Source of the DNA: Erysipelotrichaceae bacterium
Lineage (GTDB): Bacteria; Bacillota_I; Bacilli_A; Culicoidibacterales; Culicoidibacteraceae
Direction of reading: 5' to 3'
Assembly: GCA_003864555.1 (NCBI GenBank)
Contig: BHER01000001.1
Span: 1-24,000, forward strand
Length of the DNA stretch: 24,000 nt
This document shows positions 2,849 to 22,406 of the stretch, piece by piece (positions within the stretch are counted from its first letter, which is position 1; every line of letters starts with the position of its first letter). The position numbers and the translations under genes are program-made. The notes under the pieces were generated by a model. The model did not search any database and had not been told where the DNA came from. It saw only the letters and a program-made list of their open reading frames with translations.

Positions 2849-4021
2849 ATGAATAATATAAGAAAATCGAGGAATAGAATTTTATCAATTTTCTATATAT
2901 GGTGCTATAATAGCAGGCAGGAAATACGATGCTTTTTCAAAAAAATACGAGAAAATATCACAAAGGCTCTACGCTTTAAGAGTGGTGGAAAATTCGTGAG
3001 CACATTCCTTATCGGTGCAATGCTTGCAGGCTGCGCGGGTACGAATGGGACTAGAGTACAATTTGTCTATATCGCGCCTGGCGGTAATACGGCTTATCAA
3101 ATTGTGGAAAATACGGTTGTAGACGAGCAATTGAATATGATAAAAGCGAAAAAAATTGGAAAGCCGTGGTCGTATATGGGGCATGCTCTGTTTGGTAATA
3201 CTTACTACGATGGTCAGAAAATGTATAGCTCAATTGGACCAAACCTGTATATTTATGATAGTATAACAGCGAAAACAACGATACACAAAGGGTATTCAAG
3301 TTATGCTATGAAAAAAATAAATGGTGATATGTGGATTGCAACGCAAAGTGGTAAAACAACAAGGCTGTGTAAAATTGATGAGAAGCAGACGGTTGAGTGC
3401 CAATACGAGGTGGAAAACCACCAGATTACCGATTTTTATTTTAACTTTGATGAAAATACGCTTTTTGCCACCGGAACTGGAAGCGGTGTGGAAACGGGCG
3501 ATATGATGGATCAATATAAAGTGGTGAAGTATGATTTGATGACGGGCGTGGAAACAATACTCAAACATGGTGGCGAGCATATCTTGGGCGCGCGCCTTGC
3601 GAATATATGCCCCGGTCAGTTTATCACGAGCAACGGAAATATCTACACAACAGATGGTGAAAAGATTGGAGCAATTATTGGGACAAGCGGGCAGCAATTA
3701 AGTGGATTAGTCAATGATCAAATTGCAGGGACTGCAGCCTTCATGGATTATGATAATAATTTATTTGAGGTATATAGTTGCGAAAACAACACCCCCGTGC
3801 TCCAAAGAGTAATTGAACTCTCGCACGAACCCGATACCTTTCCCGAATCCTATTCGCGCGAGAGTGCGGATAACGGAGAAATAAGTATGCGAATTAGATC
3901 GAACGAGGACTTTTCTGAGACAATTGGAATCCAGAGTGTCAATCTACGAAGTGGAAAAGTTGAGGTCTATTATTTTGATGAGCCGGTGACCAATATTCAT
4001 GCCGTAGCGCGATTTTTGTAG
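2849..4021 (+). CDS. Putative lipoprotein of unknown function, start ambiguous (ATG 2849 or GTG 2996)
   Basis: Lipobox FLIGAMLAGC at residues 53-62 of the long ORF. ATG 2849 has RBS GGGAGG 5 nt upstream, but gives an unusual 50-aa basic N-extension in AT-rich sequence. GTG 2996 (VSTFLIGAMLAGC) follows GGTGGA, and a TGcTATAAT element sits at 2903-2911. The body is visibly more G+C/CpG-rich than neighbouring genes. Confidence 0.7.
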   Translation: MNNIRKSRNRILSIFYIWCYNSRQEIRCFFKKIRENITKALRFKSGGKFVSTFLIGAMLAGCAGTNGTRVQFVYIAPGGNTAYQIVENTVVDEQLNMIKAKKIGKPWSYMGHALFGNTYYDGQKMYSSIGPNLYIYDSITAKTTIHKGYSSYAMKKINGDMWIATQSGKTTRLCKIDEKQTVECQYEVENHQITDFYFNFDENTLFATGTGSGVETGDMMDQYKVVKYDLMTGVETILKHGGEHILGARLANICPGQFITSNGNIYTTDGEKIGAIIGTSGQQLSGLVNDQIAGTAAFMDYDNNLFEVYSCENNTPVLQRVIELSHEPDTFPESYSRESADNGEISMRIRSNEDFSETIGIQSVNLRSGKVEVYYFDEPVTNIHAVARFL

Positions 4022-5585: not shown

Positions 5586-5613
5586 AAACACTACATTTTG
5601 TAGTGTTTTTTTT
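5586..5613 (+). terminator. Rho-independent terminator downstream of the nitroreductase gene
   Basis: AAACACTACA (5586-5595) pairs with TGTAGTGTTT (5599-5608) around a 3-nt loop, and the T run continues to 5613. Confidence 0.75.
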
Positions 5614-5828: not shown

Positions 5829-5842
5829 TGAAAACGCTTGCA
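5829..5842. promoter_or_regulatory. Candidate cre box overlapping the -35 of the yhf-type operon promoter
   Basis: TGAAAACGCTTGCA against cre consensus TGWAANCGNTNWCA has one mismatch, at the W position. It overlaps TTGCAA at 5838-5843. Confidence 0.6.
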
Positions 5843-5866
5843 ATAAAAAAGAAAGTAAGCTACAAT
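5838..5866 (+). promoter_or_regulatory. Sigma-A-type promoter of the nine-gene operon
   Basis: TTGCAA (5838-5843), 17-nt spacer, TACAAT (5861-5866). It sits 54 nt upstream of the ATG at 5920. Confidence 0.6.
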
Positions 5867-5919
5867 AAAACCATCAATATACAAAATAATGAATATTGTA
5901 AAATGAGAGGAAGATTTTT

Positions 5920-6282
5920 ATGTTGAAAATAGTAGTAGGCGGACAAATTGATAAACCAGAAATTGCAGAATTAGTTAGAGTATGTGGGGGCGATGCAATT
6001 GAAGTAAGTGTCCAAAGTGACCTTGATGCAGCAATGTCGCTCCAAGCAGGAAGCGTAGATTACTATATTGGTGCCTGTAATACTGGTGGAGGTGGAGCAC
6101 TTGCAATGGCGATGGCACTTGTTGGTCATGATTTTTGTGCAACATTATCAATGCCCGGAAATATAAAATCAGAAGCAGAAATTCGTGGAGAAATCCAAGC
6201 TGGTAAAAAAGCTTTTGGGTTTACTGCACAAGATAAAGAGCAAATCATTCCAATCGTCATATCAGAGCTATTAAAAAAATAA
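5920..6282 (+). CDS. yhfU: DUF2620-family small soluble protein (YhfU-like)
   Basis: 120 aa. KIVVGGQ N-terminus and a Gly-rich Cys motif YYIGACNTGGGGALAMAMAL (Cys53). It sits directly upstream of a YhfT-like membrane protein and in the same operon as php. RBS GAGAGGAAG. Confidence 0.7.
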   Translation: MLKIVVGGQIDKPEIAELVRVCGGDAIEVSVQSDLDAAMSLQAGSVDYYIGACNTGGGGALAMAMALVGHDFCATLSMPGNIKSEAEIRGEIQAGKKAFGFTAQDKEQIIPIVISELLKK

Positions 6283-6307
6283 GAATACAAAGGAAGAGGA
6301 ATAAAAA

Positions 6308-7618
6308 ATGGAAACATCAAAAATAATTGAATTACTCGTCGTCGGCATGCTTGGAGCACTTGCAGCAGTTATTGCAAACAAGGGAATTGCTGTTTTTAAT
6401 GATGGACTGCGCCCAATTATTCCACAGTTTTTAGATAATAAAATTGGGAGAAAAGAATTAGCAGCAACAAGTTTTGCCCTTGGGTTCGGGCTTGTTATTG
6501 GATTTGGGATTCCAGTATCTGTCGGAGCATCTATCATTTTAGTGCATAGTATTCTCCTCGCAACCGATATTATTGGAACATGGTCACCAGGAGGGATGAA
6601 AGGTGTCATCATCTCAGCTATTATTGGTGGGATATATGGTATTGCAATTGTTCTCGGATTACAATATATTGTAGACCTTTTCGCAATGCTCCCAGTCAAC
6701 TTCCTCGATGCCCTTGCAAAAGTTGGTGCACCAGTTATTGTTGCCTTCTCAGTATTCCCATCGCTTGCAGTGGCATACCAACATGGGTTTAAAAAAGGTG
6801 CTATTACATTTGGAACATCGATATTTTTCATGTTTTTGGTAAAAGAATTTGGGGTTATTCAAATTTCTGATACGGCAACACTCAAATTAAGTGTTGAGGG
6901 AACAACACTTCTTGTGGGGATGGCATTTATGATTTTTTTCTCCCTTGGAGAAAAAGGATCAGGATCAGCAAATCAGCAACTGGTCAGTATTTTTGCAGAA
7001 CGGGTAAAACGGATTAAATCAAACTGGATAATTCTTGCAGTGATGGGAGGACTTGTTAGTGCGGCAACAAGTTTACTGATTTTAGCAGGAGATCCAATTT
7101 CGCAAAAATTAATGATTGAGGGTCTTTATAGTGAAGCAGCACTTGCAGCCTTCGCTCGTGGAATAGGCTTTATTCCGCTTGTCTTCTCAACAGCAATTGT
7201 AACGGGTGTGTATGGACCGGCAGGAACAACTTTTGTTTTTGTTATCGGGATTTTATTCCGTGGGAATCCATTACTAGCATTCGTCGCTGGATTTGCAGTT
7301 ATTGTTGTTGAAATTTTATTACTTGATAGTGCAGCCAAAGGACTTGATAAATTCCCTGGTGTCCGTGAAATGGGTGAACATATCCGAACAGCAATGAATA
7401 AAGTACTAGAAGTAGGACTTTTAATTGGTGGTGCGCTTGCATCAGAAGCAATTGCTCCGGGGATTGGTTATTTCTGGGTTATTGGGATTTACCTCTTAAA
7501 TAAAACAGCGAAAAAACCATTAGTTGATTTAGCCGTTGGACCAGTCGCAGCAATTTCACTAGGACTCTTGGTTAATATTTTAGCATTAGTTGGATTATTT
7601 ACAATTCCAACAGTATAG
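6308..7618 (+). CDS. yhfT: YhfT-like polytopic membrane protein, putative transporter
   Basis: 436 aa, hydrophobic and Gly/Ala-rich throughout, with about 11-12 TM segments by eye. Position and size parallel E. coli YhfT as I recall it. Confidence 0.7.
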   Translation: METSKIIELLVVGMLGALAAVIANKGIAVFNDGLRPIIPQFLDNKIGRKELAATSFALGFGLVIGFGIPVSVGASIILVHSILLATDIIGTWSPGGMKGVIISAIIGGIYGIAIVLGLQYIVDLFAMLPVNFLDALAKVGAPVIVAFSVFPSLAVAYQHGFKKGAITFGTSIFFMFLVKEFGVIQISDTATLKLSVEGTTLLVGMAFMIFFSLGEKGSGSANQQLVSIFAERVKRIKSNWIILAVMGGLVSAATSLLILAGDPISQKLMIEGLYSEAALAAFARGIGFIPLVFSTAIVTGVYGPAGTTFVFVIGILFRGNPLLAFVAGFAVIVVEILLLDSAAKGLDKFPGVREMGEHIRTAMNKVLEVGLLIGGALASEAIAPGIGYFWVIGIYLLNKTAKKPLVDLAVGPVAAISLGLLVNILALVGLFTIPTV

Positions 7619-7645
7619 TTCGAAAAAAGAAATGGGGATATATAT

Positions 7646-8668
7646 ATGCAACAGAATATCAAGCGTTATGCGAAAATGACAATTGCAGCCCTCAAAAATG
7701 AGCATAATACCTGTATACATGTCAATAGCGATTGTTTTGCACAAGTTTGTGAGTATACAAATACAGAGCACGAGGCTCTCTACTTCGGTGCAAAAAATAC
7801 AGCAGCTCTCAAACCATTGATTAGTAAGTTACAGGGTAATGCTTATTTCTACCATACAATTGATGCACTCGCAGATAATGGACGAGCAATTGATATTAAA
7901 TTACGAAACCCACTAACAGATAGAGCAATGAGTGGTTCATCAAGTGGTAGTGCAATTAATGTCTTTTATGGCATAAATGATATTGGAATTGGAAGCGATG
8001 GTGGTGGTTCTGTACTTGCGCCGGCAATGAGTTTAAATCTTTTTAGCCTGATTAGTCCATTATTACCAATCACACAACTTGATAAAATATCAACAGATGG
8101 GATTAAATTTGCACCCGTTGCGGGTATTATTGCTCATAATTTTAAACATTTTATTCAAACGGTGGAGTATCTTTTATTAGAAAAAAAGCCAAAGCCAAAA
8201 GCCAAAATTAGCATCTTGTGCCAAGAAAATTTTACCAAGCTTGATGGCGATAGTAACTTTCAAGTAACTAAAATGCCATTTCCAGATATAAATGGTCCAA
8301 GAGCGATACTTATTGCTTGGTGTACCCAAAAACTTAAGCTATACGATATAATAATAAGTGAAGAGGGACCGATTGATTGTTTGGAATATGGCGATACCTT
8401 ACAAGGAATTTTTTCAGAAAAAAATACCAAGGAACAACAAAAAGCGGGTAAAGGACTCCTGCGGATAGTTGCCATGTCGAAAGCAACAGCCATAACAATA
8501 CCAAAACTTGCAAAAGCTGAGGGGTATGTCCTCATTGCCAACTCAACACCTAGGGATATCTACAATCTCCTAGAAGTTGGGAAAATAGTAGAGCAACCAT
8601 TTCCGGAAATAATCAAAAAATATTTCCACCAGAGCTATAATAAACGTGAAAATAACATCATATTTTAA
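7646..8668 (+). CDS. Short, divergent amidase-signature-like protein (no counterpart in the E. coli yhf set)
   Basis: 340 aa. Residues 96-127, SGSSSGSAINVFYGINDIGIGSDGGGSVLAPA, follow the amidase-signature pattern G-[GAV]-S-[GS]2-G...[DE]-x-[GA]-x-S-[LIVM]-R-x-P with exact spacing. Ser98 and Ser122 are 24 residues apart, and there are about 4 mismatches including R to L. A KPKPKAK linker at about residue 180 splits the protein into two halves. Confidence 0.6.
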   Translation: MQQNIKRYAKMTIAALKNEHNTCIHVNSDCFAQVCEYTNTEHEALYFGAKNTAALKPLISKLQGNAYFYHTIDALADNGRAIDIKLRNPLTDRAMSGSSSGSAINVFYGINDIGIGSDGGGSVLAPAMSLNLFSLISPLLPITQLDKISTDGIKFAPVAGIIAHNFKHFIQTVEYLLLEKKPKPKAKISILCQENFTKLDGDSNFQVTKMPFPDINGPRAILIAWCTQKLKLYDIIISEEGPIDCLEYGDTLQGIFSEKNTKEQQKAGKGLLRIVAMSKATAITIPKLAKAEGYVLIANSTPRDIYNLLEVGKIVEQPFPEIIKKYFHQSYNKRENNIIF

Positions 8669-8701
8669 GATGATAAACAGAAGAAAAGGTGTGTGTGGGA
8701 A

Positions 8702-9589
8702 ATGAAATTAGTTGCAGGTATAACACTTATGCATGAGCATACAAGAATTGATCTTTCAGGATTAAAAAAGAATGATGATTGTAATCTAAATTGCTTTGAA
8801 CAGACAATTAAAGAATACAAAGAACTCTACCAACAGGGTGTTCGGAATATTGTGGATGTGACAAATATTGGCATGGGTGGTGATGCAGCATATGTCCAAA
8901 AAGTTGCGAAAGCATCCAATATCAATATTATCCATGCCACAGGCTTCTATCAGGATAAGTTTTTGCCACCGATTGTTTTTTCCAAGACTGTCGAGCAGCT
9001 AGCACAAATTATGATTGACCAGATTGAAATTGGGATTGATGGTACGAGTGCAAAAGCAGATATCATTGGTGAAATTGGCACAAGTAAAAATGAGATGACT
9101 GCAGCAGAGCAGAAAGTTTTCAAAGCAGCCATGCTTGCATCACGCAAAACGGGTAAGCCACTAACAACCCATACAACACTTGGTACGTATGGGAAAGAGC
9201 AAGTTGCTTTTTTCAAAGAACATGATTTTCCTTTAAATATGGTGATGATTGGGCATGTTGATTTAACGGGCGATACAGAGTATGTCCTCGACTTGCTAAA
9301 AGAGGGGGTATATGTTGAACTCGATACAGTGGGGAAACATAATTATATGGCGGATGCAGTCCGTTTGGAGATGCTCAAAGAAATTGAAGAGCAGGGGTTT
9401 GAAAACCGGGTTTGCCTATCGCTCGATATTACACGGAAATCACAATTAAAGTATCTAGGAGGTATCGGCTATACATATATGCTTGATACTTTTATCCCGT
9501 ATTTACGCGCGAGTGGTCTAAGTGAGCGTTTTATTGAGAAGATGCTCATCGAAAATCCACAGCGGTTTTTTGAAGAAAAAAGCCAATAA
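8702..9589 (+). CDS. php: Phosphotriesterase-homology protein (Php; amidohydrolase superfamily, binuclear metal centre)
   Basis: Candidate metal ligands are HEH (His11/His13), GEIG (Glu124), TTHT (His157), IGHVD (His185) and LSLDIT (Asp242), counted from ATG 8702. ATG 8702 is preferred over the GTG at 8693 used by the ORF track. Confidence 0.9.
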   Translation: MKLVAGITLMHEHTRIDLSGLKKNDDCNLNCFEQTIKEYKELYQQGVRNIVDVTNIGMGGDAAYVQKVAKASNINIIHATGFYQDKFLPPIVFSKTVEQLAQIMIDQIEIGIDGTSAKADIIGEIGTSKNEMTAAEQKVFKAAMLASRKTGKPLTTHTTLGTYGKEQVAFFKEHDFPLNMVMIGHVDLTGDTEYVLDLLKEGVYVELDTVGKHNYMADAVRLEMLKEIEEQGFENRVCLSLDITRKSQLKYLGGIGYTYMLDTFIPYLRASGLSERFIEKMLIENPQRFFEEKSQ

Positions 9590-9607
9590 AAGAAAAGGGG
9601 AAAGAGG

Positions 9608-10711
9608 ATGCAAACATATCCATTAACAAGTATTTCAGTAGAAGAGGCAACACAAAAACAATTTGCTTTAATTGATGCAATTACCCGTGTTTTTAAAGGG
9701 AGCGAAATTCTTACACGTGGTGATTTAGGTGTTGTTAGGGGGCTTAATCAACCACAAACAACGGCAAAAGTTGAGCGTGTATTAGCAACTTTTTTCAATG
9801 CACCAAAAGCGATGCTTGTGCGTGGTGCAGGGACAATGGCAATTAGACTTGCGCTATATAGTAGTATAAATTTGGGTGAAACAATTTTAATCCATGATGC
9901 AGCAGTTTATCCAACAACAGATACATCTTTCCAAATGATGGGCTTAAAAACGGTACGAGCAGATTTTAATATTTCGGGTGCAATAACCCGTGCATTAAAG
10001 CAAAATCCCGAAATCAGAGGAGTACTCATCCAGTTCACCCGCCAGCAGCCTAGTGATTGCTATGATATGGAAAACATCATTGCTGAAATCCGGGCCTATA
10101 CGCAGGATTTGCCAATTATTACAGATGATAATTACGCTGTTTTGAAAGTACCCAAAATTGGTTGCGAACTGGGAGCAACACTCTCGTGCTTCTCAACATT
10201 TAAGCTCCTTGGACCAGAAGGTATCGGCTGTATTATTGGGAATCGGGAGGCCATTGAAAAACTGCGGAGCCAAAATTATTCTGGAGGACTACAAGTTCAA
10301 GGACATGAAGCAATTGATGTCCTGCGTGGCATGATTTATGCGCCAGTAGCCTTAGCAATTTCTGCAAATGTTACAGAGCAAACTGCCCAAAAATTAAATG
10401 AGGGTGCAATTGCGGGTGTAAAATCATGCTTTATTGCAAATGCACAATCAAAAGTACTCATTGTCGAACTAGAAAAGCAAATTGCAGATGCAGTCTTAGT
10501 TGAGGCCGAAAAATTAGGTGCAGCACCCCATCCAGTTGGTGCAGAATCACAGTATGAATTTGTACCAATGTTCTATCGTATTTCTGGGACATTTAGAAGC
10601 AGTGATCCAACACTTGAAAAACGGATGATTCGGATTAATCCGATGCGCGCAGGGAGTACCACAATTCTGCGAATTCTTGAAGAGGCAATTCAGAATGTAA
10701 CGCAGGGATAA
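9608..10711 (+). CDS. yhfS: YhfS-like fold-type-I PLP-dependent enzyme
   Basis: 367 aa. ITDDNYA (Asp173) and SCFSTFKLLG (Lys199) resemble the PLP Asp and Schiff-base Lys motifs of aminotransferase/Cys-Met-metabolism-type enzymes. RBS GGGGAAAGAGG. Confidence 0.7.
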   Translation: MQTYPLTSISVEEATQKQFALIDAITRVFKGSEILTRGDLGVVRGLNQPQTTAKVERVLATFFNAPKAMLVRGAGTMAIRLALYSSINLGETILIHDAAVYPTTDTSFQMMGLKTVRADFNISGAITRALKQNPEIRGVLIQFTRQQPSDCYDMENIIAEIRAYTQDLPIITDDNYAVLKVPKIGCELGATLSCFSTFKLLGPEGIGCIIGNREAIEKLRSQNYSGGLQVQGHEAIDVLRGMIYAPVALAISANVTEQTAQKLNEGAIAGVKSCFIANAQSKVLIVELEKQIADAVLVEAEKLGAAPHPVGAESQYEFVPMFYRISGTFRSSDPTLEKRMIRINPMRAGSTTILRILEEAIQNVTQG

Positions 10712-10738
10712 TATACCAAAAGAAGGAGATGAACACCG

Positions 10739-11662
10739 GTGAAATCAGATTTTTTTCAGAAAAAAGGCACAGCAATTAAGCAATTAGCTGAAGTTTTAAT
10801 TGTAATGCAACCGGGAGAAAAACTACCAATTGTCAGTGTGCTTCAGGAAAATCTAGGAATATCACGGGGAACAGTACAGAATGCTTTGCAATTTCTCAAA
10901 GACCAAGATGCAATTGTGCTTGTAAGCAGGGGCCATCTTGGGAATTATCTTACAAGTATCAACCACCGTATTTTACAACAGTATGCAGGAACGGATGAAC
11001 TTTTTGGGACAATGCCATTGCCATACTCGCGGATCTATGAGGGGTTAGCAACTGCACTATATGACACCCTAAATGCTCAAGGAGTACGGCTTAATATGGC
11101 ATATATTCGGGGTTCAAATGACCGCTTGCAGTCAGTTGTGCGAGGGATGTATCAGTTTGCAATTGTTTCAAAATATGCTGCAAGACGTAGTATTGAAATG
11201 GGAGAAAGCCTTAAAATCATTGCCGATTTAGGAAAGTATAGCTATCTATCACAACATATCCTATTACTAAAGAATCCAAATGCGACAACAATTGTTGCAG
11301 GAGACCGTGTTGGAATTGATATGAGTTCAATTGATCAAAAGGAGCTTACGCATATATTAACTGCTAACACAAAAGTAAGTTATATCAATTTACCAGGGCA
11401 CCAATTAATCCATGAAATTGAGCTTGGGAGAATTGATGCCGGTGTTTGGAATTATGATGAAATTATCGAAAAGAACTATGAACATCTAAATTACCAACTC
11501 ATATCAGATATGGCAATTTCAGAAGAAGTATCCACAGCAGTCATAGTCTGCAACCAATCAGATATCCTGGTACAAACAGTCTTAGAAAAAAATATTGATA
11601 CAATTAAAATCTTACAAATTCAACAAGATGTTAAAAAAGGGAAAATTATACCTCGCTATTAA
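10739..11662 (+). CDS. yhfZ: YhfZ-like transcriptional regulator (GntR-like winged HTH plus C-terminal ligand-binding-type domain)
   Basis: 307 aa from a GTG start, with RBS GAAGGAG 10 nt upstream. HTH segment SVLQENLGISRGTVQNALQFLKDQDAIVLVSRGHLGNYL. The next gene is a PRD protein, as in the E. coli yhfZ-yhfY pair. Confidence 0.7.
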   Translation: MKSDFFQKKGTAIKQLAEVLIVMQPGEKLPIVSVLQENLGISRGTVQNALQFLKDQDAIVLVSRGHLGNYLTSINHRILQQYAGTDELFGTMPLPYSRIYEGLATALYDTLNAQGVRLNMAYIRGSNDRLQSVVRGMYQFAIVSKYAARRSIEMGESLKIIADLGKYSYLSQHILLLKNPNATTIVAGDRVGIDMSSIDQKELTHILTANTKVSYINLPGHQLIHEIELGRIDAGVWNYDEIIEKNYEHLNYQLISDMAISEEVSTAVIVCNQSDILVQTVLEKNIDTIKILQIQQDVKKGKIIPRY

Positions 11663-11684
11663 TAAAAAAAAGGAGAAATTTGAG

Positions 11685-12032
11685 ATGATCTACAAAAAAA
11701 TGGAGATTTTAAAAAATGGAAATATTATTGATGAAGCAGCATATGACTATGCGTTTAAAGTCATCAAACGCTTAGGGGAAGAGGGGATAGATGTGCAATC
11801 GGATAGAGCACAAGTATTTGTAACACATCTTGCAATGGCAACGATGCGGATGCAAAAAGGCGAAGTACTTGAACCACTATCAGAAGCAATTGAGGCTGAT
11901 TTAAAGGGGCAATCAATATTCGCGCAAGCAGAAATACTCTGGACACAGCTTGCATATTTTGCACCAAAACCATTTGCCCAAGCCGAAGAAGGATATATCT
12001 ACATCCATATGTGTTCATTATTGAGCAACTAG
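11685..12032 (+). CDS. yhfY: Stand-alone PRD-domain protein (YhfY-like)
   Basis: 115 aa from ATG 11685, with RBS AGGAG 9 nt upstream. All-helical, with the His-containing segment VFVTHLAMATMR typical of PRD modules. The ORF-track start at 11595 would overlap yhfZ by 68 nt and lacks an RBS. Confidence 0.65.
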   Translation: MIYKKMEILKNGNIIDEAAYDYAFKVIKRLGEEGIDVQSDRAQVFVTHLAMATMRMQKGEVLEPLSEAIEADLKGQSIFAQAEILWTQLAYFAPKPFAQAEEGYIYIHMCSLLSN

Positions 12033-12047
12033 AGAGGAGCACGCATC

Positions 12048-13217
12048 ATGTTTTTAACGATGACGACAAACCGCAATCAGGAACTTATCGATTTTGCAGT
12101 AGAACTGCATCAAAAAGGACAAATTTTGCCCGACACCTATGTCATTGACGTGGATACTTTGTGTGAAAATGCCCGGATGCTTGCATGCTCTGCTAAAGAA
12201 TATGGCATTGAGCTCTATTATATGACAAAGCAAATTGGTCGCAATCCTTATCTTGCAAAAAAAATTCATGAAGCAGGCATCAAAAAAGCAGTAGTTGTCG
12301 ACTTCAAAGAAGCACTGCTTTTAATGGATGCAGGACTACCACTTGGAAATGTTGGGCATCTTGTACAAATTCCCAACCAATTATTAAAAAAGATTTTAGC
12401 TTATGGTACCGATTACGTCACTATTTACTCAATAGAGATGCTTAAAAAAGTTGATGCAGTTGCAGGCGAACTCGGTATTATTCAGCCTGTGCTATTGCGG
12501 ATTTTAGATGAGGGAGATCGGATTTATGAGGGGCAATATGGTGGGTTTATGCTGGATGATTTACCAGCGCTTATGCAAGAATTTAAAAAATTACTAAGCA
12601 TCAGAATTACCGGTCTGACATCTTTTCCCTGCTTTTTATATCAAGCGGAACAAGGAGAGTTTATGTCAACACCCAATGCTCAAACACTATATAGAGCACA
12701 AATACTTCTGAATAAAGCAGGCTTTGCAATCACGCAACTCAATATGCCCTCGGCAACATGTGTCCGCTCACTCAAATTTTTAGCAGAAATTGGAGGAACA
12801 CAAGGAGAACCAGGGCATGCACTAACTGGAACAACACCGATGCATGCCAAAGAAGTATTAGCAGAAAAACCAGCACTTGTCTATGTGAGTGAAATTTCTC
12901 ATAGGTTTAAAGGGAAAAGCTATTGCTATGGAGGGGGTTACTATCGCCGTGGGAATTTATCAAATGCCCTCATAGCGACAAAGGGGATGCCATATACGGA
13001 AACAAAAGTTTCTCCTTTTGATAATGAGAGTATTGATTATTACCTTGAATTAGCAGGCATGCAACCACAAGATGCAACGGTTATTATGGCATTTCGAACA
13101 CAAATTTTTGTAACCCGTAGTGAGGTTGCATTGGTTGAGGGATTATCGACAAATACGCCTAAACTTGTAGGAATTTACGATAGCTTAGGTAAAAAAAATA
13201 AGGGGGATTTAAAATAA
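12048..13217 (+). CDS. yhfX: YhfX-like fold-type-III (alanine-racemase-N-terminal-like) PLP enzyme
   Basis: 389 aa. The N-terminal barrel-type region has candidate PLP lysine YYMTKQIGRNP. RBS GAGAGGAG. Position and size parallel E. coli YhfX as I recall it. Confidence 0.65.
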   Translation: MFLTMTTNRNQELIDFAVELHQKGQILPDTYVIDVDTLCENARMLACSAKEYGIELYYMTKQIGRNPYLAKKIHEAGIKKAVVVDFKEALLLMDAGLPLGNVGHLVQIPNQLLKKILAYGTDYVTIYSIEMLKKVDAVAGELGIIQPVLLRILDEGDRIYEGQYGGFMLDDLPALMQEFKKLLSIRITGLTSFPCFLYQAEQGEFMSTPNAQTLYRAQILLNKAGFAITQLNMPSATCVRSLKFLAEIGGTQGEPGHALTGTTPMHAKEVLAEKPALVYVSEISHRFKGKSYCYGGGYYRRGNLSNALIATKGMPYTETKVSPFDNESIDYYLELAGMQPQDATVIMAFRTQIFVTRSEVALVEGLSTNTPKLVGIYDSLGKKNKGDLK

Positions 13218-14422
13218 TGGCAAGATTTATAGTAGTCGTTTTAGATAGTTTTGGTGTGGGTGCAATGGATGATTGCAAAGCTGTACGCAAACAAGATATT
13301 GGGTCGAATACCGCCTTACATATTCTCGAAAAGACGCCAAATTTGTATCTGCCTAATCTTGAAAGTTTGGGTCTTATGAATATTCTTGATGCAGAAATAG
13401 ATGGGATGATATTAAATCCAATGTCAAATTATGGGACTGCTAATTTAGCACATTTTGGGGCAGATAGCTTTGCAGGCCATCAGGAAATCATGGGAACGAA
13501 GCCCTCAAGACCTTTAGAACTTGCAATAAATGATGTTGCAGCAGAGGTGAAATTAGCATTAGAACTTGCGGGGCATCGGGTAGATTTTATTGAAAAAGAT
13601 GGATTAAAAGCAATCCTCGTCGATGGGACTGTTTTAGTTGCTGATAATATGGAAACAGATTTAGGGCAAGTGATTAATGTAAATGGAATATTAGATGAAA
13701 TATGTTTTGCAGATGTTGAGAAAATTGGTCGGATTGTCCGTGGCGTGGTCAAAGTATCACGTGTAATTGTTCTTGGAGGTAGGAGTGTTAGTCTTAATAG
13801 GATGCTTGCAGCCCTAAAGACTAACTCAGAATTTATTGGATTGGATACACCAAAATCAGGGTTATATTTAGATGATTACCAGGTAATTCATCTTGGATAT
13901 GGCGTAGATACGACCATGCAAGTTCCTCATGCCCTTGCACAAAAGAAAATCCCAACAGTATTTGTTGGGAAAGTTGGCGATATTGTTGCCAATCCGGGAG
14001 GATGCAATATTTCAGGTGTGGATACGCAAGATCTTTTTGATGCTTTTATTACGGAAATTAAAAAAGAAAAAACGGCTTTCTTCTGTCTTAATATTCAAGA
14101 AATGGATTTAGCAGGTCATGCACAAAATGTAAAAAAATATGCAAAGAAATTAAAAATATCTGATGATAAAATTGGTGAAATCTTGGAAATTTTAGGAGTC
14201 GATGATGTGCTTATTGTGATGGCTGATCATGGCAATGACCCAACAGTTGGTCATAGCAGGCATACACGCGAGCGGGTCCCATTACTAGTTGCTAAGCAGG
14301 GTCTAACCTACGTACGACTTGATGAGCGTGAGACGATGGCAGATGTTGGTGCTACAGTTGCTGCTTTTTTTGGGACAAGCATAGCATATGGGACATCCTT
14401 TTTACGAATGATTCAAAACTAA
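13217..14422 (+). CDS. yhfW: YhfW-like phosphopentomutase-family metalloenzyme (putative phosphomutase)
   Basis: 401 aa. VVVLDSFGVGAMDD, GADSFAGHQEIMG, DLAGHAQN and ADHGNDPT align with DeoB motifs VLDSFGIG, GKDTxSGHWEIAG and ADHGCDPT. The start overlaps the yhfX stop (TAATG). Confidence 0.8.
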   Translation: MARFIVVVLDSFGVGAMDDCKAVRKQDIGSNTALHILEKTPNLYLPNLESLGLMNILDAEIDGMILNPMSNYGTANLAHFGADSFAGHQEIMGTKPSRPLELAINDVAAEVKLALELAGHRVDFIEKDGLKAILVDGTVLVADNMETDLGQVINVNGILDEICFADVEKIGRIVRGVVKVSRVIVLGGRSVSLNRMLAALKTNSEFIGLDTPKSGLYLDDYQVIHLGYGVDTTMQVPHALAQKKIPTVFVGKVGDIVANPGGCNISGVDTQDLFDAFITEIKKEKTAFFCLNIQEMDLAGHAQNVKKYAKKLKISDDKIGEILEILGVDDVLIVMADHGNDPTVGHSRHTRERVPLLVAKQGLTYVRLDERETMADVGATVAAFFGTSIAYGTSFLRMIQN

Positions 14423-14428
14423 AAAAGA

Positions 14429-14465
14429 TCGTCCTCAGGTGGAAATTTGAGGACGACCTTTTTTT
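14429..14465. terminator. Strong rho-independent terminator between convergent genes, potentially bidirectional
   Basis: TCGTCCTCA (14429-14437) pairs with TGAGGACGA (14448-14456), a 9-bp perfect stem with a 10-nt loop, followed by a T7 run (14459-14465). An A6 run upstream (14421-14426) could serve the minus strand. Confidence 0.85.
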
Positions 14466-14527: not shown

Positions 14528-16138
14528 TTATCCTCTAAAAACAAGATGCCAGAAATTTATTTTTTTGGACATTAACCAAATAATGGCTAAATTGATAACA
14601 CCAAGGAGCACAAGATAAATTAGTGCTAGAAGGCGACCTTCAAAAACTGCGGGTACAAACTGCATAATAAGGGAATTACAAGCAAGTGTTAGGAAAAACC
14701 CAGGGATGCTACAAATAATGGTTTTGCCAATAGCATTATAAATGAAATAAGGTTTTAAATCAACTAACTTCAAAATATCACGTGTTGATAGATAAACAAT
14801 CATTAATAATCCAAGCATCGTTGCAAAAATATCGCCATACACCCCGAAAAAATAGACAAGGGGGAAGTTTAGGATAAGTTTTACAACGGGGCCAATAGCG
14901 CTGTAGATGAGCGCTTTTTTCTTTTCTCCAAAAGCAAGGAGGACTGATACTGAAATAGTTTCAAGTGCAAATGCCATACCACGGAAGCCATCTACCCGTA
15001 AAACCGCAGCAATAAACTGTGTCGTAACATTATCCAAATTATAAAAAAAAGTAATCAGAGGGACAGATAAGGTTACCATAATAAGGACTGCTGAGAGTGT
15101 TGTGAAAAAAATCATGCGATAGGATTTCTTGACATATTTTCGCGTTTGTCTCATATCTTGGCTCTCGTATGCACTCGTGACAAAGCTGATAATTGCAACC
15201 GAAATTGCTAATGAAAAAGTCAAAGGAATCGAAACGAGTTTATCACTCCACTGGTTGATAACGGTATACTCTGATTTTGCTAGTAACTCAGTTGCACCAG
15301 CAAAAATCCGAATTTTTTCAAAAGTAAATAAAGTAATCTGGGAATAGAGTGTTGCTGCAAGACCAGAGATTACAAAAGGGAGAGCAGTAAGAATTAATTG
15401 GCGGCTGATAAATTTCTTATCGGAACCTATTTGATCCAAAGAAGTTTCCATCAGTATTTTATGCTCCCGTCGGGTTTTAGCATAGAAAGGATATAATGTG
15501 AAAATTGTAATGATAGTTGCAATAGGGAGAGCAATAAAGGCATAAGCAATCGCTTTTCCACTTTCTATTTTAAAGAAGTTTAGCGTAATATAGAGCGTGG
15601 ATAAAAGGATGATAACATAGGCAAGGCGCTCAACGACTTGTGAAATAGAAACACCAATTACGGTTTTAAAACCTTGGAGATAACCACGCATCCCACTCAA
15701 AATTGGGATAAGGACAAGTGCTGGTGCCATAATATAGAGTGCAAGGGTAGTTGCTTGTGCAAGCTCTGGATTATCGGGTGCTTTAAACTGTCCAAATGGT
15801 TGAGCAAAAAGAACAAATAAAACCATCAAAACAAGACCAAGGACAAGCATTAAGCGTTGTGCAATTTTTAAAACCTCATTAGCAGTCTTATACTGACCAT
15901 TCACATTGTAAATTGAAATCAGGCGTGCAATAGCAAGGGGGAGGCCTGCAAGGGATAGTTCATAGAATGGTTGAAACATCGTATAGGCATAGCTATTGAC
16001 ATAATTGGCATTGGTATTAAAAACCATTGCTGCAAAAGGGATGAGGTAGGCAACACTTATAATACGTGTTAAAAAAAGTCCAATTGTTGAAATGAGGGCA
16101 ACACTAACAAAGGACTGATTTTTATTTATTTTGTTCAT
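14528..16138 (-). CDS. MOP-superfamily flippase (polysaccharide biosynthesis protein; MurJ/YtgP/SpoVB-like)
   Basis: 536 aa with about 14 TM segments by eye. The overall architecture is typical of Wzx/MurJ-type flippases. RBS GAGGAG. Confidence 0.7.
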   Translation of the reverse strand: MNKINKNQSFVSVALISTIGLFLTRIISVAYLIPFAAMVFNTNANYVNSYAYTMFQPFYELSLAGLPLAIARLISIYNVNGQYKTANEVLKIAQRLMLVLGLVLMVLFVLFAQPFGQFKAPDNPELAQATTLALYIMAPALVLIPILSGMRGYLQGFKTVIGVSISQVVERLAYVIILLSTLYITLNFFKIESGKAIAYAFIALPIATIITIFTLYPFYAKTRREHKILMETSLDQIGSDKKFISRQLILTALPFVISGLAATLYSQITLFTFEKIRIFAGATELLAKSEYTVINQWSDKLVSIPLTFSLAISVAIISFVTSAYESQDMRQTRKYVKKSYRMIFFTTLSAVLIMVTLSVPLITFFYNLDNVTTQFIAAVLRVDGFRGMAFALETISVSVLLAFGEKKKALIYSAIGPVVKLILNFPLVYFFGVYGDIFATMLGLLMIVYLSTRDILKLVDLKPYFIYNAIGKTIICSIPGFFLTLACNSLIMQFVPAVFEGRLLALIYLVLLGVINLAIIWLMSKKINFWHLVFRG

Positions 16139-16264
16139 AGGGACACTCCTCTATATTGCTTTTTGAGTAATAATCTAAAAACTGCCCCAAAAGGCAGACA
16201 TACCATCATTATATCATATTTTTTTCAATAGAGGAAAAAGTGCTAACGAGATCGCTAAATTTTA

Positions 16265-16293
16265 TTGTATTTGTTTTATTTATTGGGTATAAT
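16265..16293 (+). promoter_or_regulatory. Sigma-A-type promoter of pflA
   Basis: TTGTAT (16265-16270), 17-nt spacer, TATAAT (16288-16293). Confidence 0.5.
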
Positions 16294-16367
16294 TAAAATG
16301 AATAGAGTTAAATATAGTAGCCAACTGAGAGATATATCTATTTGGTTATGATGTTAGGAGAAATAAA

Positions 16368-17162
16368 ATGCTAAAAGGACATGTGCATTCCATCGAGACA
16401 TTTGGAACAGTTGATGGACCAGGAATTCGCTTTGTGGTTTTTTTTCAAGGATGTATGCTTAAATGCCAGTACTGCCATAACCCTGATACATGGGATCTAG
16501 AAGGCGGGGTAGAATATACTGTTACAGAACTTTTGGATGAATATGATAAATACCGTAATTTTTTAAAGGGTGGAGGAATTACTGTAACAGGGGGTGAGGC
16601 ATTATTACAAATGAATTTTGTCACTGAGCTCTTTAAAGAAGCAAAAGCACGGAATATTCATACCTGCTTGGATACTTCGGGAGCAACTTTTCGCAAAGGG
16701 CTTGCAGCGAATGTTCGAAAGATGCAGAAATTAATGGATAATACAGATTTGGTCCTCTTAGATTTAAAACATATTGATGATGCTAAACATAGAGAGCTTA
16801 CGGGTATTACAAATAAGAACATCCTTGATTTTGCAGTCTGGCTTAGTGAAAGCGGGGTAGCTGTTTGGATTCGCCATGTGGTAATTCCAGGGATAACACT
16901 AGATGATTCTTCCCTATATCGCCTTGGACGTTTTATAGGGAAACTTGATAATGTTGAAAGAATAGAATTACTACCCTATCATGTGATGGGGGTTAATAAA
17001 TGGGAAGCACTTGGTTGGAAATACCCGCTTGAGGGCATCGAGCCACCAAAAGCAGAAGAATTTAGTCGTGCACAGCAGATTGTTATTAAAGGTGTTAAAG
17101 ATCAACATCTGATGTTAAAAAAACAAAATACACTTAAAAAAAACAATATTCACCTTGAATAG
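16368..17162 (+). CDS. pflA: Pyruvate formate-lyase (glycyl-radical enzyme) activating enzyme, radical SAM
   Basis: 264 aa. HSIETFGTVDGPGIRFVVFFQGCMLKCQYCHNPDTW contains the CxxxCxxC cluster motif. It is colinear with E. coli PflA through VWIRHVVIPG and IELLPYH. Confidence 0.9.
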   Translation: MLKGHVHSIETFGTVDGPGIRFVVFFQGCMLKCQYCHNPDTWDLEGGVEYTVTELLDEYDKYRNFLKGGGITVTGGEALLQMNFVTELFKEAKARNIHTCLDTSGATFRKGLAANVRKMQKLMDNTDLVLLDLKHIDDAKHRELTGITNKNILDFAVWLSESGVAVWIRHVVIPGITLDDSSLYRLGRFIGKLDNVERIELLPYHVMGVNKWEALGWKYPLEGIEPPKAEEFSRAQQIVIKGVKDQHLMLKKQNTLKKNNIHLE

Positions 17163-17224
17163 TTTATATGAGTATGATACACTAACAAAGGTTTAAAAAA
17201 ATGAAGTATATAAGGAGAATAAAT

Positions 17225-17770
17225 ATGAATAGATTTGTAGGAAGATTTCTAATATCCGTGCTTGTCTTAATTGGTTTCGTCGCATTCAGCTTTTTTAGTT
17301 CAGCAGATTCAGCAAGCGTAAAAGTAGTACACACTATCCAAAAACAAGAACCTATATTAGCAGGTCGACCAAGTGGTGATTTACTACTTAGTTCGATGGT
17401 TAATTTCTATGCTGGTGCAGCAGAGGCTAGTGATGAGGAACTCGGAATGGATGCAAATCAAGGGACAGCATTCAGAACATTAGCAAACTATATTGCTTTA
17501 AATGTTCCAAATGTCGAAGAGTCATCAGCCAAGAAAGTTAGTGGAGCCTATATTGGTAACAGCTCGGATAGCTCAGTTACAGGGGTTTATGTGCTCACAT
17601 TTCCTCGTGATATACAGATTGGACAAGATATCAGCGACATAGCCAATACAGCAGAACTAGAATATTTCATCGTAAAAGATAAAATTATGGTTATTGCGGA
17701 TGCTGATTATCTAGCTGATCTAGATATTGATTTTTCTGATTTTGAAGCAAAAGTACTAGCTAAAATATAA
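17225..17770 (+). CDS. Small secreted or membrane-anchored protein of unknown function
   Basis: ATG 17225 follows AAGGAG by 7 nt, whereas the ORF-track start at 17201 lacks an RBS. Signal-peptide-like N-terminus MNRFVGRFLISVLVLIGFVAFSFFSSADSA. Acidic C-terminal half. Confidence 0.6.
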   Translation: MNRFVGRFLISVLVLIGFVAFSFFSSADSASVKVVHTIQKQEPILAGRPSGDLLLSSMVNFYAGAAEASDEELGMDANQGTAFRTLANYIALNVPNVEESSAKKVSGAYIGNSSDSSVTGVYVLTFPRDIQIGQDISDIANTAELEYFIVKDKIMVIADADYLADLDIDFSDFEAKVLAKI

Positions 17771-17963: not shown

Positions 17964-19055
17964 ATGGGAAAACAAATAGGGGTTTCAATCTATCCGGAGC
18001 ATAGTACAATAAAAGAAATCAAAGCATATTTAGATTTAGCAGCAAAATATAATGTCAAAAAAGTCTTTAGTTGCCTATTATCCGTTACAAAACCAGTTGA
18101 AGAAATTAAAAAAGAATTTAAAGAAATCAATGCGTACACTGTAAATCTTGGAATGGAATTGATGTTAGATGTCTCACCACGTGTTTTTAGCACTCTTGGG
18201 ATCAGCTATGATGACTTAAGCTTTTTTTCAGATATTTCAGCAACAGGAATTAGACTTGATATGGGCTTTGATGGTGTAGTAGAAGCAAAAATGACACATA
18301 ATCCTTATGGACTCGATATCGAAATTAATATGAGTAATGATGTTGCTGGAATTGATAATATTATGAGCTATCGTCCAAATACGGACCGCTTAATTGGTTG
18401 TCATAATTTCTACCCCCAAGAATATACCGGATTACGGCTTTCACATTTTATGAGTTGTTCAGAGCGATTCAAAAAATTTAACTTAAAAACATCAGCATTT
18501 GTTAGTGCACCCTCGGCTAAAATTGGGCCTTGGCCAGTTATGGATGGACTTGTAACACTAGAAATGCACCGTAGGTTGCCACTTACTGCACAGGCAAAAC
18601 ACCTTTTTGCAACGGGCTTGATTGATACCGTTATTATTGGGAATATGTATGCCTCAGAGGAGGAGCTAAAAGCATTATCAGAAATTGACCCAGATATTAT
18701 AAGTCTAGAAGTTGAATTTGCTCCCGGAACAACAGAATTAGAAAAAGATATTGTCTTAAATTCTCCTCATTTTAATCGTGGAGATATTAATGATTATATG
18801 ATCCGTTCAACAATGAGCCGTGTTGTCTACAAAGATCGTCCATTCCCAATCCATGATGTATCGACACTTTCAAAAGGAGATATAATTATTGGGAATGATT
18901 TATTTGGTCAATACAAAGGCGAACTCCAATTATGCATCAATGATTTACCAGAAGACGGACGTAAAAATTGTGTTGCCCGCATCATTGATGCTGAGATCTT
19001 TTTAATAGACTATATTAAAGCATGGGATAGATTTAAATTTATTGAAAAAAAATAA
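17964..19055 (+). CDS. mupG: DUF871 / MupG-family protein (putative 6-phospho-N-acetylmuramidase)
   Basis: 363 aa. The N-terminus IGVSIYPEHSTIKEIKAYLDLAAKYNVKKVFSCLLSV matches the conserved DUF871 N-terminal TIM-barrel pattern as I recall it. RBS AAGGAG. Confidence 0.7.
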   Translation: MGKQIGVSIYPEHSTIKEIKAYLDLAAKYNVKKVFSCLLSVTKPVEEIKKEFKEINAYTVNLGMELMLDVSPRVFSTLGISYDDLSFFSDISATGIRLDMGFDGVVEAKMTHNPYGLDIEINMSNDVAGIDNIMSYRPNTDRLIGCHNFYPQEYTGLRLSHFMSCSERFKKFNLKTSAFVSAPSAKIGPWPVMDGLVTLEMHRRLPLTAQAKHLFATGLIDTVIIGNMYASEEELKALSEIDPDIISLEVEFAPGTTELEKDIVLNSPHFNRGDINDYMIRSTMSRVVYKDRPFPIHDVSTLSKGDIIIGNDLFGQYKGELQLCINDLPEDGRKNCVARIIDAEIFLIDYIKAWDRFKFIEKK

Positions 19056-19073
19056 GCAGGAGGAGCAAAAAAA

Positions 19074-21266: not shown

Positions 21267-21283
21267 AAGGAATTGAATATGAT

Positions 21284-21925
21284 ATGATGAAATTTTTAAA
21301 AATGACTACAGTAATACTACTAACACTTGGACTTTATGTGGGGTGTGCTAAAGCGGAGACAGGAGAAAATAACAAGCCTACTAGCAATCCTACGAGTGCA
21401 AGTGGTTTTCCACTGGCAACAATTGAGATGGAAAATGGTGGGATAATCGTAATTGAACTCGACGCCAAGCAAGCACCAAATACCGTTGCAAACTTTGTTG
21501 AGCTTGCGCAAAATAAATTCTATGATGGACTTAGTTTCCATCGTGTGATACCAGGATTTGTTATCCAAGGAGGAGATCCAGCAGGAAATGGTATGGGTGG
21601 TCCAGGATATGGTATCACAGGAGAATTTAGTGCAAACGGTATTGAAAATAATCTGCTCCACACACGTGGGGTCATCTCAATGGCACGTTCTGGACAAATG
21701 GATTCAGGGGGTTCACAATTTTTTATCATGGTTGCAGACAGTACATCACTTGATGGGCAATATGCCTCGTTTGGAAAAGTCATAGCAGGAATGGATGTTG
21801 TCGATGCAATTGTTTCGGCAGATCGGGATGCAAATGATAAGCCAATGGAAGATCAGCGCATGAAAAGTGTTACTATTGATATGAATGGTGCAATATTACC
21901 AGAACTTGAGAAACTAAAAGAGTAA
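21284..21925 (+). CDS. Cyclophilin-type peptidyl-prolyl cis-trans isomerase, lipoprotein
   Basis: FHRVIPGFVIQGGDP and SMARSG...GSQFFI are cyclophilin signatures. Signal plus lipobox MMKFLKMTTVILLTLGLYVGC. ATG 21284 is preferred to the TTG at 21263 used by the ORF track. Confidence 0.9.
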   Translation: MMKFLKMTTVILLTLGLYVGCAKAETGENNKPTSNPTSASGFPLATIEMENGGIIVIELDAKQAPNTVANFVELAQNKFYDGLSFHRVIPGFVIQGGDPAGNGMGGPGYGITGEFSANGIENNLLHTRGVISMARSGQMDSGGSQFFIMVADSTSLDGQYASFGKVIAGMDVVDAIVSADRDANDKPMEDQRMKSVTIDMNGAILPELEKLKE

Positions 21926-22079: not shown

Positions 22080-22406
22080 ATGGATACACAACTCAAAAAA
22101 GGGACGCTTGAATTTTGTGTTATTGCGTTATTATCACATCGTGATTGGTATGGCTATGAGCTTACGCAAGAGCTTAATAAATTGCTTATTGTCAAAGATG
22201 CGACAATTTATTTGATATTACAGCGTTTAGAAAAGGCAAACTTTGTCGAGGCCTATATCCAAGTTATGGATGATAGTGCCAAAATTCGTAAATACCATCA
22301 CTTAACAGCAAAAGGAATTGAACGCCTCTCCTTATTACAAGAAGAATGGGCTAGGCTTGCAATTATCGTAGAGCAATGTATTGAAAAAGGAGAGATGAGC
22401 AAATGA
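22080..22406 (+). CDS. PadR-family transcriptional regulator
   Basis: 108 aa. LEFCVIALLSHRDWYGYELTQEL...IYLILQRLEKANFVEAY....RKYHHLTAKG is the canonical PadR winged-helix pattern. RBS AAGGGAG. Confidence 0.9.
   Translation: MDTQLKKGTLEFCVIALLSHRDWYGYELTQELNKLLIVKDATIYLILQRLEKANFVEAYIQVMDDSAKIRKYHHLTAKGIERLSLLQEEWARLAIIVEQCIEKGEMSK

Follow-up and report, generated by a model that had tools for sequence, protein, structure and literature searches.

Nine genes on one strand and their E. coli counterparts

The 24,000-nucleotide stretch of DNA analysed here (the window; positions 1 to 24,000 of contig BHER01000001.1 from an Erysipelotrichaceae bacterium) carries nine genes on the forward strand that almost certainly constitute an intact orthologue of the Escherichia coli yhfZYXW-php-yhfUTS cluster, enlarged by a ninth gene, the product of which is a short protein of the amidase-signature type. 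The set opens with a yhfU-like gene encoding a DUF2620 protein of 120 amino acids (aa) (5920-6282), followed by a yhfT-like gene for a polytopic membrane protein of 436 aa (6308-7618), the short amidase-signature-like gene, which has no E. coli counterpart (7646-8668; 340 aa), php, which encodes the phosphotriesterase-homology protein (8693-9589; 298 aa, GTG start), and yhfS, for a fold-type I pyridoxal phosphate (PLP) enzyme of 367 aa (9608-10711). Downstream of these lie yhfZ (10739-11662), whose GTG-initiated product of 307 aa joins a GntR-type helix-turn-helix to a ligand-binding-like YhfZ_C domain; yhfY, for a stand-alone PRD-domain protein of 115 aa (11685-12032); yhfX, for a fold-type III PLP enzyme of 389 aa (12048-13217); and yhfW, for a phosphopentomutase-like metalloenzyme of 401 aa (13217-14422), the start of which overlaps the yhfX stop. 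The yhfY start was placed at the ATG at 11685 and not at the upstream TTG at 11595 given in the list of open reading frames (ORFs).

Family assignments come from Pfam and NCBIfam searches and from BLASTP comparison with the proteins of E. coli K-12. The initial annotation, made from the sequence alone, had matched eight of the products to the E. coli set family by family, and the searches bear this out: the ORFs do belong to the families named, with full-length BLASTP identities of 29-53% (YhfU 38%, YhfT 33%, Php 47%, YhfS 53%, YhfZ 29%, YhfY 31%, YhfX 47% and YhfW 48%). The amidase-like protein had no BLASTP counterpart among the proteins of the E. coli K-12 region, and this ninth gene is missing from the E. 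coli cluster. Gene order differs, as had been proposed, running Z-Y-X-W-php-U-T-S in E. coli and U-T-amidase-php-S-Z-Y-X-W here. However, fusion of the genes into one operon, which had been listed as a further difference, does not set the locus apart: in K-12 (b3383-b3376) the eight genes likewise form a cluster on one strand with short gaps, and the Z-Y, X-W and U-T pairs are adjacent as in the window. The E. coli cluster is carried by 5062 of 5426 complete E. coli genomes (93%).

The nine genes are closely packed, with intergenic gaps in gene order of 25, 27, 24, 18, 27, 22, 15 and -1 nt, and a purine-rich ribosome-binding site is present in every gap. The spacing first described, 18-27 nt or overlap, holds for most gaps but not for yhfY-yhfX, which are 15 nt apart; the TAATG overlap of yhfX and yhfW at 13215-13219 is real. 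A terminator-like hairpin on the forward strand (5586-5608; perfect 10-bp stem, then a T-run) ends the upstream nitroreductase gene and marks the upstream limit of the unit. A sigma-70-type promoter-like site follows on the same strand at 5838-5866 (TTGCAA-17 nt-TACAAT, 9/12 match, 54 nt before the first ATG), and its -35 hexamer is overlapped by a box resembling a catabolite-responsive element (cre), TGAAAACGCTTGCA, at 5829-5842, a candidate CcpA site with a 13/14 match to TGWAANCGNTNWCA. The promoter pattern occurred at chance level (35 sites found in the region against 34.7 expected), and the call is supported by the position of the site between the terminator and the first gene. At the other end, 7 nt past the yhfW stop, lies an intrinsic-terminator-like hairpin with a T-run on the forward strand (14429-14465; hairpin 14429-14456). 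No other terminator in the region is as good: five of the pairs in its 12-bp stem are G-C, the loop is 4 nt long and the tail reads CCTTTTTTTA. The nine same-strand ORFs, the promoter-like site with its cre-like box and the strong terminator of the initial annotation were thus all recovered, and the tight packing and single strong terminator suggest one transcription unit.

Candidate enzymes, transporter and regulators

To examine the active sites, the proteins encoded in the window were aligned with their orthologues in E. coli, Isobaculum, Clostridium, Izimaplasma, Cetobacterium and a Bacillus thuringiensis plasmid. As judged from these alignments the enzymes look intact, with no sign of decay in any gene. 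Php matched PF02126 (E 9e-83) and the PDB entries 1BF6 and 4LEF (E 8e-85), and its metal ligands H14, H16, E127, H160, H188 and D245 (HxH, a bridging Glu, two His and an Asp) were invariant in 7 orthologues. Its scores fell below the equivalog level of characterised activities, at 94 against a cut-off of 500 for OPH and 88 against 630 for phospho-furanose lactonase. The bridging ligand Glu127 is the same as in E. coli PHP (PDB 1BF6), whereas true phosphotriesterases use a carboxylated lysine; phospho-sugar lactonases are among the characterised relatives of Php, as the name of NCBIfam NF045706 also indicates. YhfS contains an Aminotran_5 and a YhfS-like_C domain (the latter at E 2e-43), matched PDB 4J8L at E 2e-118 and keeps K199 invariant in an S-x-F-K motif. 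YhfX, composed of Ala_racemase_N and YhfX-like_C, matched PDB 4KBX at E 2e-110, and its K61 is invariant. YhfW is a member of the Metalloenzyme family and scored 520 bits against a cut-off of 254 with NCBIfam NF009049 (PRK12383 'phosphopentomutase'). Only this YhfW-type model was passed; the true DeoB models were not reached (TIGR01696, 153.7 against 341.2; NF003766, 181.4 against 256). YhfW nevertheless aligned end to end with Bacillus cereus phosphopentomutase and kept all metal ligands, with D10, D297..H301, D337-H338 and H349 of the binuclear site invariant. Ser84 of the window protein aligned on the nucleophile Thr85 of the B. cereus enzyme, a position at which most YhfW orthologues have Thr.

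YhfU matched PF10941 (DUF2620) at E 3e-43. A search with Foldseek using an AlphaFold2 model built from a 54-sequence alignment (pLDDT 96.9) returned type B ribose-5-phosphate isomerases (RpiB) as the top matches (5ifz, 3k7o, 2vvr and 1o1x; TM 0.65-0.70, probability 1.0, E ~2e-3). Cys53 and Thr55 are invariant in the 54-sequence alignment. A weak hhalign alignment (27 columns, E 0.06) sets YhfU GACNTGGGGALA on E. coli RpiB LICGTGVGISIA; GACNTGGGG falls on ICGTGVG of RpiB, so that Cys53 and Thr55 match Cys66 and Thr68, the catalytic residues of that enzyme. On the modelled structure, YhfU is a protein of the RpiB/LacAB-type fold that keeps the Cys-x-Thr motif. It departs from RpiB in several respects. 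At 120 aa against 149 it is 30 residues shorter and has no C-terminal extension, the chain ending at residue 120, and the phosphate-binding C-terminal Arg residues of RpiB have no visible counterpart; an invariant G7-G8-Q9 replaces the Asp-His of the strand-1 loop; and, unlike RpiB/LacAB, YhfU is always encoded beside a membrane protein gene. Because the Asp-His loop and the C-terminal extension are lacking, YhfU should not be filed as an RpiB; it may be an isomerase, or it may act with YhfT as its cytoplasmic partner. Weak similarity of YhfU to the Gly-rich SFCGS family (PF14272, E 8e-4; TIGR03577, E 2e-3), taken with the fold, suggests that both families of unknown function belong to the RpiB superfamily.

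YhfT, matched by PF10797 at E 4e-160, is presumed to be an importer. Its structural model (pLDDT 77) had no fold match in the PDB, with a best TM of 0.2. A profile search of 1.84 billion representatives found a compact family: at E up to 0.001 there were 348 matches, each a cluster at 50% identity, of which the best 150 were of YhfT length or shorter fragments. Judging from the model and the profile search, YhfT may constitute a separate family of transporters.

The product of the ninth gene reached 30.3 bits with PF01425 (gathering score 27), over residues 87-128 only. It carries the signature MSGSSSGSA...GSDGGGSVLAPA, with a Gly/Ser-rich segment, the cis-Ser and the nucleophile Ser in GxDxGGS, and in 37 homologues K50, H70, T71, D73, R80, D83, S98-S100 and S122 (in GxDGGGSVLAPA) are invariant. 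Alignment to any amidase-signature (AS) profile or structure extended over 38-45 residues only; when the family profile was compared with solved structures, the yeast GatA homologue 4N0H was matched over 38 residues at E 4e-6. The protein has 340 aa against ~450 aa for the full AS fold, and the invariant K50 precedes the signature by 48 residues, against ~75-80 residues for the AS catalytic Lys. At least 196 homologues of ~320-370 aa were found, and every genomic context examined was a yhf-type operon. By these sequence criteria the short amidase-like proteins appear to form a family of their own, very remote from canonical AS enzymes. The initial annotation had treated the gene as an extra at this locus. 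It is present here, but it is not peculiar to the locus, as 46 of 80 related operons from several phyla have it. It occupies four positions, after yhfT, after php, after yhfW or divergently upstream of yhfU, and this survival of the linkage through rearrangement argues for selection on the linkage and for a shared function.

Two proteins of the set are putative regulators. YhfZ, with HTH_41 and YhfZ_C domains, scored 361.6 bits with NCBIfam NF041241 (YhfZ_full; cut-off 260), and its second domain weakly resembles periplasmic-binding-protein folds (NMT1, E 1e-3), so a role as effector sensor is plausible. YhfY matched PF00874 (PRD) at 25 bits against a cut-off of 23 and contains no other domains within its 115 aa. 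His48 is invariant, and His107 is conserved except in E. coli: E. coli YhfY (16061-16423 of its locus, L001) has Asn in place of this second PRD histidine, which is present in the window protein and kept by all six YhfY sequences, mostly from Firmicutes, that were aligned besides the E. coli one. PRD-mediated control may accordingly differ between E. coli and other lineages. We considered YhfY as an antiterminator of the BglG/LicT type and rejected this, because the protein lacks a CAT domain and no RNA element was found, an Rfam scan of the window for a leader RNA having given no match. It more likely passes the phosphorylation state of the phosphotransferase system (PTS) or of HPr to YhfZ. 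The cre pattern is enriched in the window, with 8 strand-matches against 1.8 expected and none of 100 shuffles reaching 8.

The four cre-like palindromes in the 24 kb (151-164, 2433-2446, 2661-2674 and 5829-5842) amount to ~4x chance. One of them lies just upstream of a GH4 glycosidase gene at 230, and two precede an unannotated ORF at 2849-4021 (390 aa). This region of the genome may be under wider CcpA control.

Distribution, accessory genes and genomic surroundings

A scan with a YhfT alignment over one genome per GTDB species confirmed relatives in at least 548 species. We kept 80 loci for comparison, labelled by ORF calling and BLASTP, from hosts that included Enterococcus, Vagococcus, Carnobacteriaceae, Clostridium, the Bacillus licheniformis group, Lactobacillus, Erysipelothrix, an Entomospira plasmid, Petrotoga and Izimaplasma. 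Some 80 loci keep the core, made up of U-T-P-S, X-W and in most cases Z-Y, in several orders, with the Z-Y, X-W and U-T pairs adjacent as they are here and in E. coli, and loci with the core set span Bacillota, Fusobacteriota, Thermotogota, a spirochaete plasmid and Izimaplasma. Isobaculum melis, Clostridium swellfunianum, a Cetobacterium somerae plasmid and Oceanotoga have the same nine families, short amidase included. Gene order in the Isobaculum operon is identical to that in the window; in other nine-gene operons the amidase gene and the Z-Y pair are found at varying places. Yhf-type operons were also found on large plasmids, namely p118 of Entomospira entomophila (L033) and a 705-kb plasmid of C. 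somerae (L090), in keeping with the cluster spreading horizontally as an accessory metabolic island.

To describe the accessory genes, non-core ORFs of the 80 loci were clustered and identified with Pfam and NCBIfam. Some nine-gene operons add nagB, a PBP4B-like hydrolase gene, a nucleoside-hydrolase-like gene or a HAD phosphatase gene. The glucosamine-6-phosphate deaminase gene nagB (TIGR00502, 293 bits against a cut-off of 237) occurred in 11 of the 80 loci, downstream, on the same strand and at a median of 76 nt from the operon end, in Izimaplasma, Bacillus, Peribacillus, Clostridium and Acidaminococcales, and also in Oceanotoga. No nagA was co-linked with nagB among the loci. A lipoprotein of the class-C beta-lactamase/PBP4B type (NF002968, 230 bits, below cut-off) was encoded in 12 loci and inside the operon in two of them (L036 and L082). 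A nucleoside-hydrolase-like gene (IU_nuc_hydro) lay just upstream on the same strand in seven, and three had a Cof-type HAD phosphatase. At the Oceanotoga locus (L093, 6727-17896) a divergent PBP4B-like gene, the complete nine-gene set and nagB occur together. The PBP4B-like protein of this locus shares 50% identity with one from Clostridium, which suggests that accessories travel between phyla with the operon; its NagB shares 48% identity with one from Bacillus.

The initial annotation had remarked on the missing kinase. None is present in the locus, and the observation extends to ~80 related loci: in a set of 99 immediate neighbours of related operons, the 25 commonest Pfam families included no sugar-kinase family.

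In the window, the flanking genes code for the GH4 glycosidase, the nitroreductase, a MurJ-like flippase, PflA, MupG, a DUF6077 protein and a cyclophilin, and they look unrelated to the operon. MupG (6-phospho-N-acetylmuramidase), the 730-aa DUF6077 membrane protein and the cyclophilin are encoded by a tight same-strand trio at 17964-21925, in which the DUF6077 and cyclophilin ORFs (19074-21266 and 21263-21925) overlap by 4 nt. MupG is a peptidoglycan-sugar gene product encoded 3.5 kb from the yhf operon, a link that may be due to chance. Five ORFs of 63-390 aa (1696-2220, 2217-2408, 2849-4021, 17201-17770 and 22403-22957) had no Pfam or NCBIfam match, those at 2217-2408 and 22403-22957 not both having been scanned in both libraries.

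Proposed function and comparison with known systems

The nine genes very probably work as one inducible catabolic operon. This reading follows from the dedicated permease, the two hydrolases, the effector-type regulators, the cre site, the patchy and partly plasmid-borne distribution and the attached deaminase. On balance, a route for a nitrogen-containing sugar conjugate is somewhat more likely than not. The enzyme set implies a substrate with an amide and/or an ester-lactone bond, an alpha-amino-acid-like centre and a sugar-phosphate-like part. In such a route YhfT would import the nitrogen-containing carbohydrate conjugate, in some genomes after a secreted PBP4B-like serine hydrolase has first released it outside the cell. 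The amidase and the binuclear-metal hydrolase Php would then open two bonds, one an amide and the other an ester, lactone or phosphoester. The amino-acid-like part would be processed by YhfX, as a racemase or a deaminase of the D-amino-acid type, and by YhfS, as an enzyme of the beta-lyase or aminotransferase type, while the mutase YhfW and the RpiB-fold YhfU would rearrange the sugar-phosphate part. Where nagB is attached, that part would leave the pathway as glucosamine-6-phosphate and then as fructose-6-phosphate. Expression would be controlled by YhfZ together with YhfY, to which the candidate CcpA site over the -35 box may add catabolite control in this genome. Besides the linked nagB and PBP4B-like genes, the Cof-type HAD phosphatases of three loci, the invariance of His48 and the enrichment of cre-like sites count as supporting observations for a catabolic amino-sugar route.

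The nagB linkage makes a hexosamine the leading, if still tentative, candidate for the sugar part, and the lack of a co-linked nagA suggests that its amine either is free from the start or is released in the course of the pathway. The initial annotation had guessed at an amino-sugar, sugar-acid or sugar-amino-acid conjugate; nagB directly downstream of 11 of the 80 operons lends this indirect support. The PBP4B-like family is tied to D-amino-acid peptides and esters. The occurrence of such an exo-enzyme together with the racemase-fold YhfX and the amidase makes a cell-envelope conjugate attractive, although we consider derivation of the substrate from microbial envelopes doubtful. Somewhat less likely again is the fuller proposal of an undescribed route for uptake and breakdown of a phosphorylated amino-sugar/(D-)amino-acid conjugate from microbial envelopes. 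Such a route would be served by a new family of transporters (YhfT) together with RpiB-fold YhfU and by a miniature enzyme of the amidase-signature type, and one of its exits would be glucosamine-6-phosphate.

Several observations weigh against a catabolic amino-sugar operon. The linked nagB is confined to ~14% of the loci. Neither a kinase nor a PTS component was found within the loci or next to them, which leaves the origin of the mutase's phosphate unexplained. The accessory genes hint in two directions, with nagB and the PBP4B-like gene favouring a hexosamine or the cell wall and the nucleoside-hydrolase-like gene, taken with the two proteins that resemble phosphopentomutase and RpiB, favouring a ribosyl compound. 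The nearest solved relatives of YhfS are cysteine desulfurases and cystathionine beta-lyases, and glucosaminate-6-phosphate lyase was absent from its PDB matches even at E up to 10. A B. thuringiensis plasmid (NZ_CP126475.1, 11184-16502; L091) carries a reduced Y-U-T-php-S-X set that lacks yhfW and yhfZ; two ATP-grasp genes and a gene for an MFS transporter come after it, and in this variant the mutase appears dispensable. The cre-like box was conserved in one of four loci checked (present in Enterococcus avium, L016; absent in L007, L008 and L025), which makes CcpA control local at best. The single transcript is itself an inference from gene layout.

One alternative is catabolism of a ribosyl conjugate or modified nucleoside. 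Pentose phosphates would then be the substrates of YhfW, as a true mutase, and of YhfU, as an isomerase, and the amidase and PLP enzymes would dispose of an amino-acid-bearing aglycone. The end-to-end alignment of YhfW with B. cereus phosphopentomutase and its retained metal ligands, the RpiB fold of YhfU with Cys-x-Thr, and the nucleoside-hydrolase-like gene just upstream in seven loci all suit this alternative. It is nonetheless rather unlikely: no nucleoside phosphorylase or ribokinase is found among the commonest neighbour Pfam families, YhfW scores under both DeoB cut-offs (154 against 341 and 181 against 256), YhfU is 30 residues short of RpiB and has GGQ in place of Asp-His, and linkage to nagB is commoner than linkage to the nucleoside hydrolase. 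The missing kinase and the PRD protein could both be accounted for by a hidden PTS, with YhfU as an EIIB-like phospho-cysteine carrier and YhfT as an EIIC-like permease that would phosphorylate the substrate on entry. The U-T adjacency, invariant among the loci compared, would agree with this, as would the invariant Cys53, the conserved His of YhfY and the lack of any kinase found near the loci. However, no PTS IIB structure was among the top 50 fold matches of YhfU, hhalign gave null results for YhfU against UlaB and GatB (probability 0.2%) and for YhfT against UlaA, and YhfT had no PDB fold match. With neither an EIIB fold nor an EIIC relationship emerging from the fold search and profile comparisons, the idea is unsupported and we judge it improbable.

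A biosynthetic or modification operon, for example for an unusual amino sugar or a D-amino-acid building block, is more improbable still. Mutases and racemase-like and aminotransferase-like PLP enzymes are also found in biosynthetic routes, and the B. thuringiensis plasmid variant is flanked by its ATP-grasp ligase genes. Such an operon sits poorly with a dedicated permease, two hydrolases and GntR and PRD regulators in one set, with the cre-like box and the catabolic deaminase downstream, and with a distribution that is patchy across phyla and megaplasmid-borne, like that of accessory catabolic islands; moreover, no glycosyltransferase, ligase or exporter is conserved with the cluster. Membership of Php in the PTE family (PF02126) would also allow detoxification of organophosphates or xenobiotics centred on Php as a phosphotriesterase, but this is hardly credible given the low OPH score, the bridging Glu127 in place of the carboxylated lysine and conserved partners that are PLP enzymes and a mutase. 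E. coli PHP reportedly showed no phosphotriesterase activity in the hands of Buchbinder et al. in 1998. The preferred reading remains that of an inducible operon for the catabolism of a nitrogen-containing sugar conjugate.

The locus is a new copy, in the widespread nine-gene form, of a known and catalogued but uncharacterised cluster, after which Pfam and NCBIfam families are already named, and is not categorically new. Structures have been solved for Php since the late 1990s (1BF6, 4LEF) and for YhfS (4J8L) and YhfX (4KBX) since about 2013, the latter two under the title 'uncharacterized protein', and a function or reaction has been assigned to none. The earlier statement that no substrate or pathway is attached to the yhf set stands within the full-text literature searched, outside which most subscription journals lie, and within RefSeq of September 2026, where every E. 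coli product is still 'putative' or 'uncharacterized'; where the families are mentioned in PMC5293155, PMC3423039, PMC7513527, PMC12147183, PMC2831329 and PMC2965389, it is in lists or incidentally, with no function assigned. Were the substrate identified, eight or nine protein families would gain a function together, and a nutrient niche common to commensals and pathogens could come to light. Species with YhfT include gut Enterococcus, Clostridium, Lactobacillus and Bacillus. The locus itself leaves the Php question unsolved, but the comparative clues (linkage of nagB, PBP4B-like and short amidase genes, the RpiB-like DUF2620 fold, an unsupported PTS and no kinase found near the loci) narrow the experiments, for which the E. 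coli K-12 copy is more tractable than this one from an uncultured genome.

Two further known systems resemble the yhf set in make-up or logic. The EF_0830/AHA_3911-type cluster, which according to the TIGRFAMs descriptions consists of the SFCGS protein, a PRD protein, DUF4310/4311/4312 membrane proteins, a SelA-like PLP enzyme, an amidohydrolase and an aldolase, is similar in combining a PRD protein, a small Gly-rich Cys protein, membrane protein(s), a PLP enzyme and an enzyme of the amidohydrolase superfamily. It differs in its membrane proteins and is not known to include a mutase or a fold-type III PLP enzyme, and it too is uncharacterised in the literature searched. Glucosaminate-type routes share the logic of an amidohydrolase-type deacylation of a sugar-derived alpha-amino acid followed by PLP-dependent deamination (PMC9537276, PMC9529869). 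OngC, which acts on glucosaminate, is like YhfX a fold-type III PLP enzyme (PMC9537276), and glucosaminate-6-phosphate lyase is a PLP enzyme acting on a sugar-derived amino acid (PMC9529869). No close sequence relationship between these routes and the yhf proteins was detected, and, unlike them, the yhf sets do without a kinase, a 2-keto-3-deoxy-6-phosphogluconate (KDPG) aldolase or a PTS and combine two PLP enzymes with a mutase.

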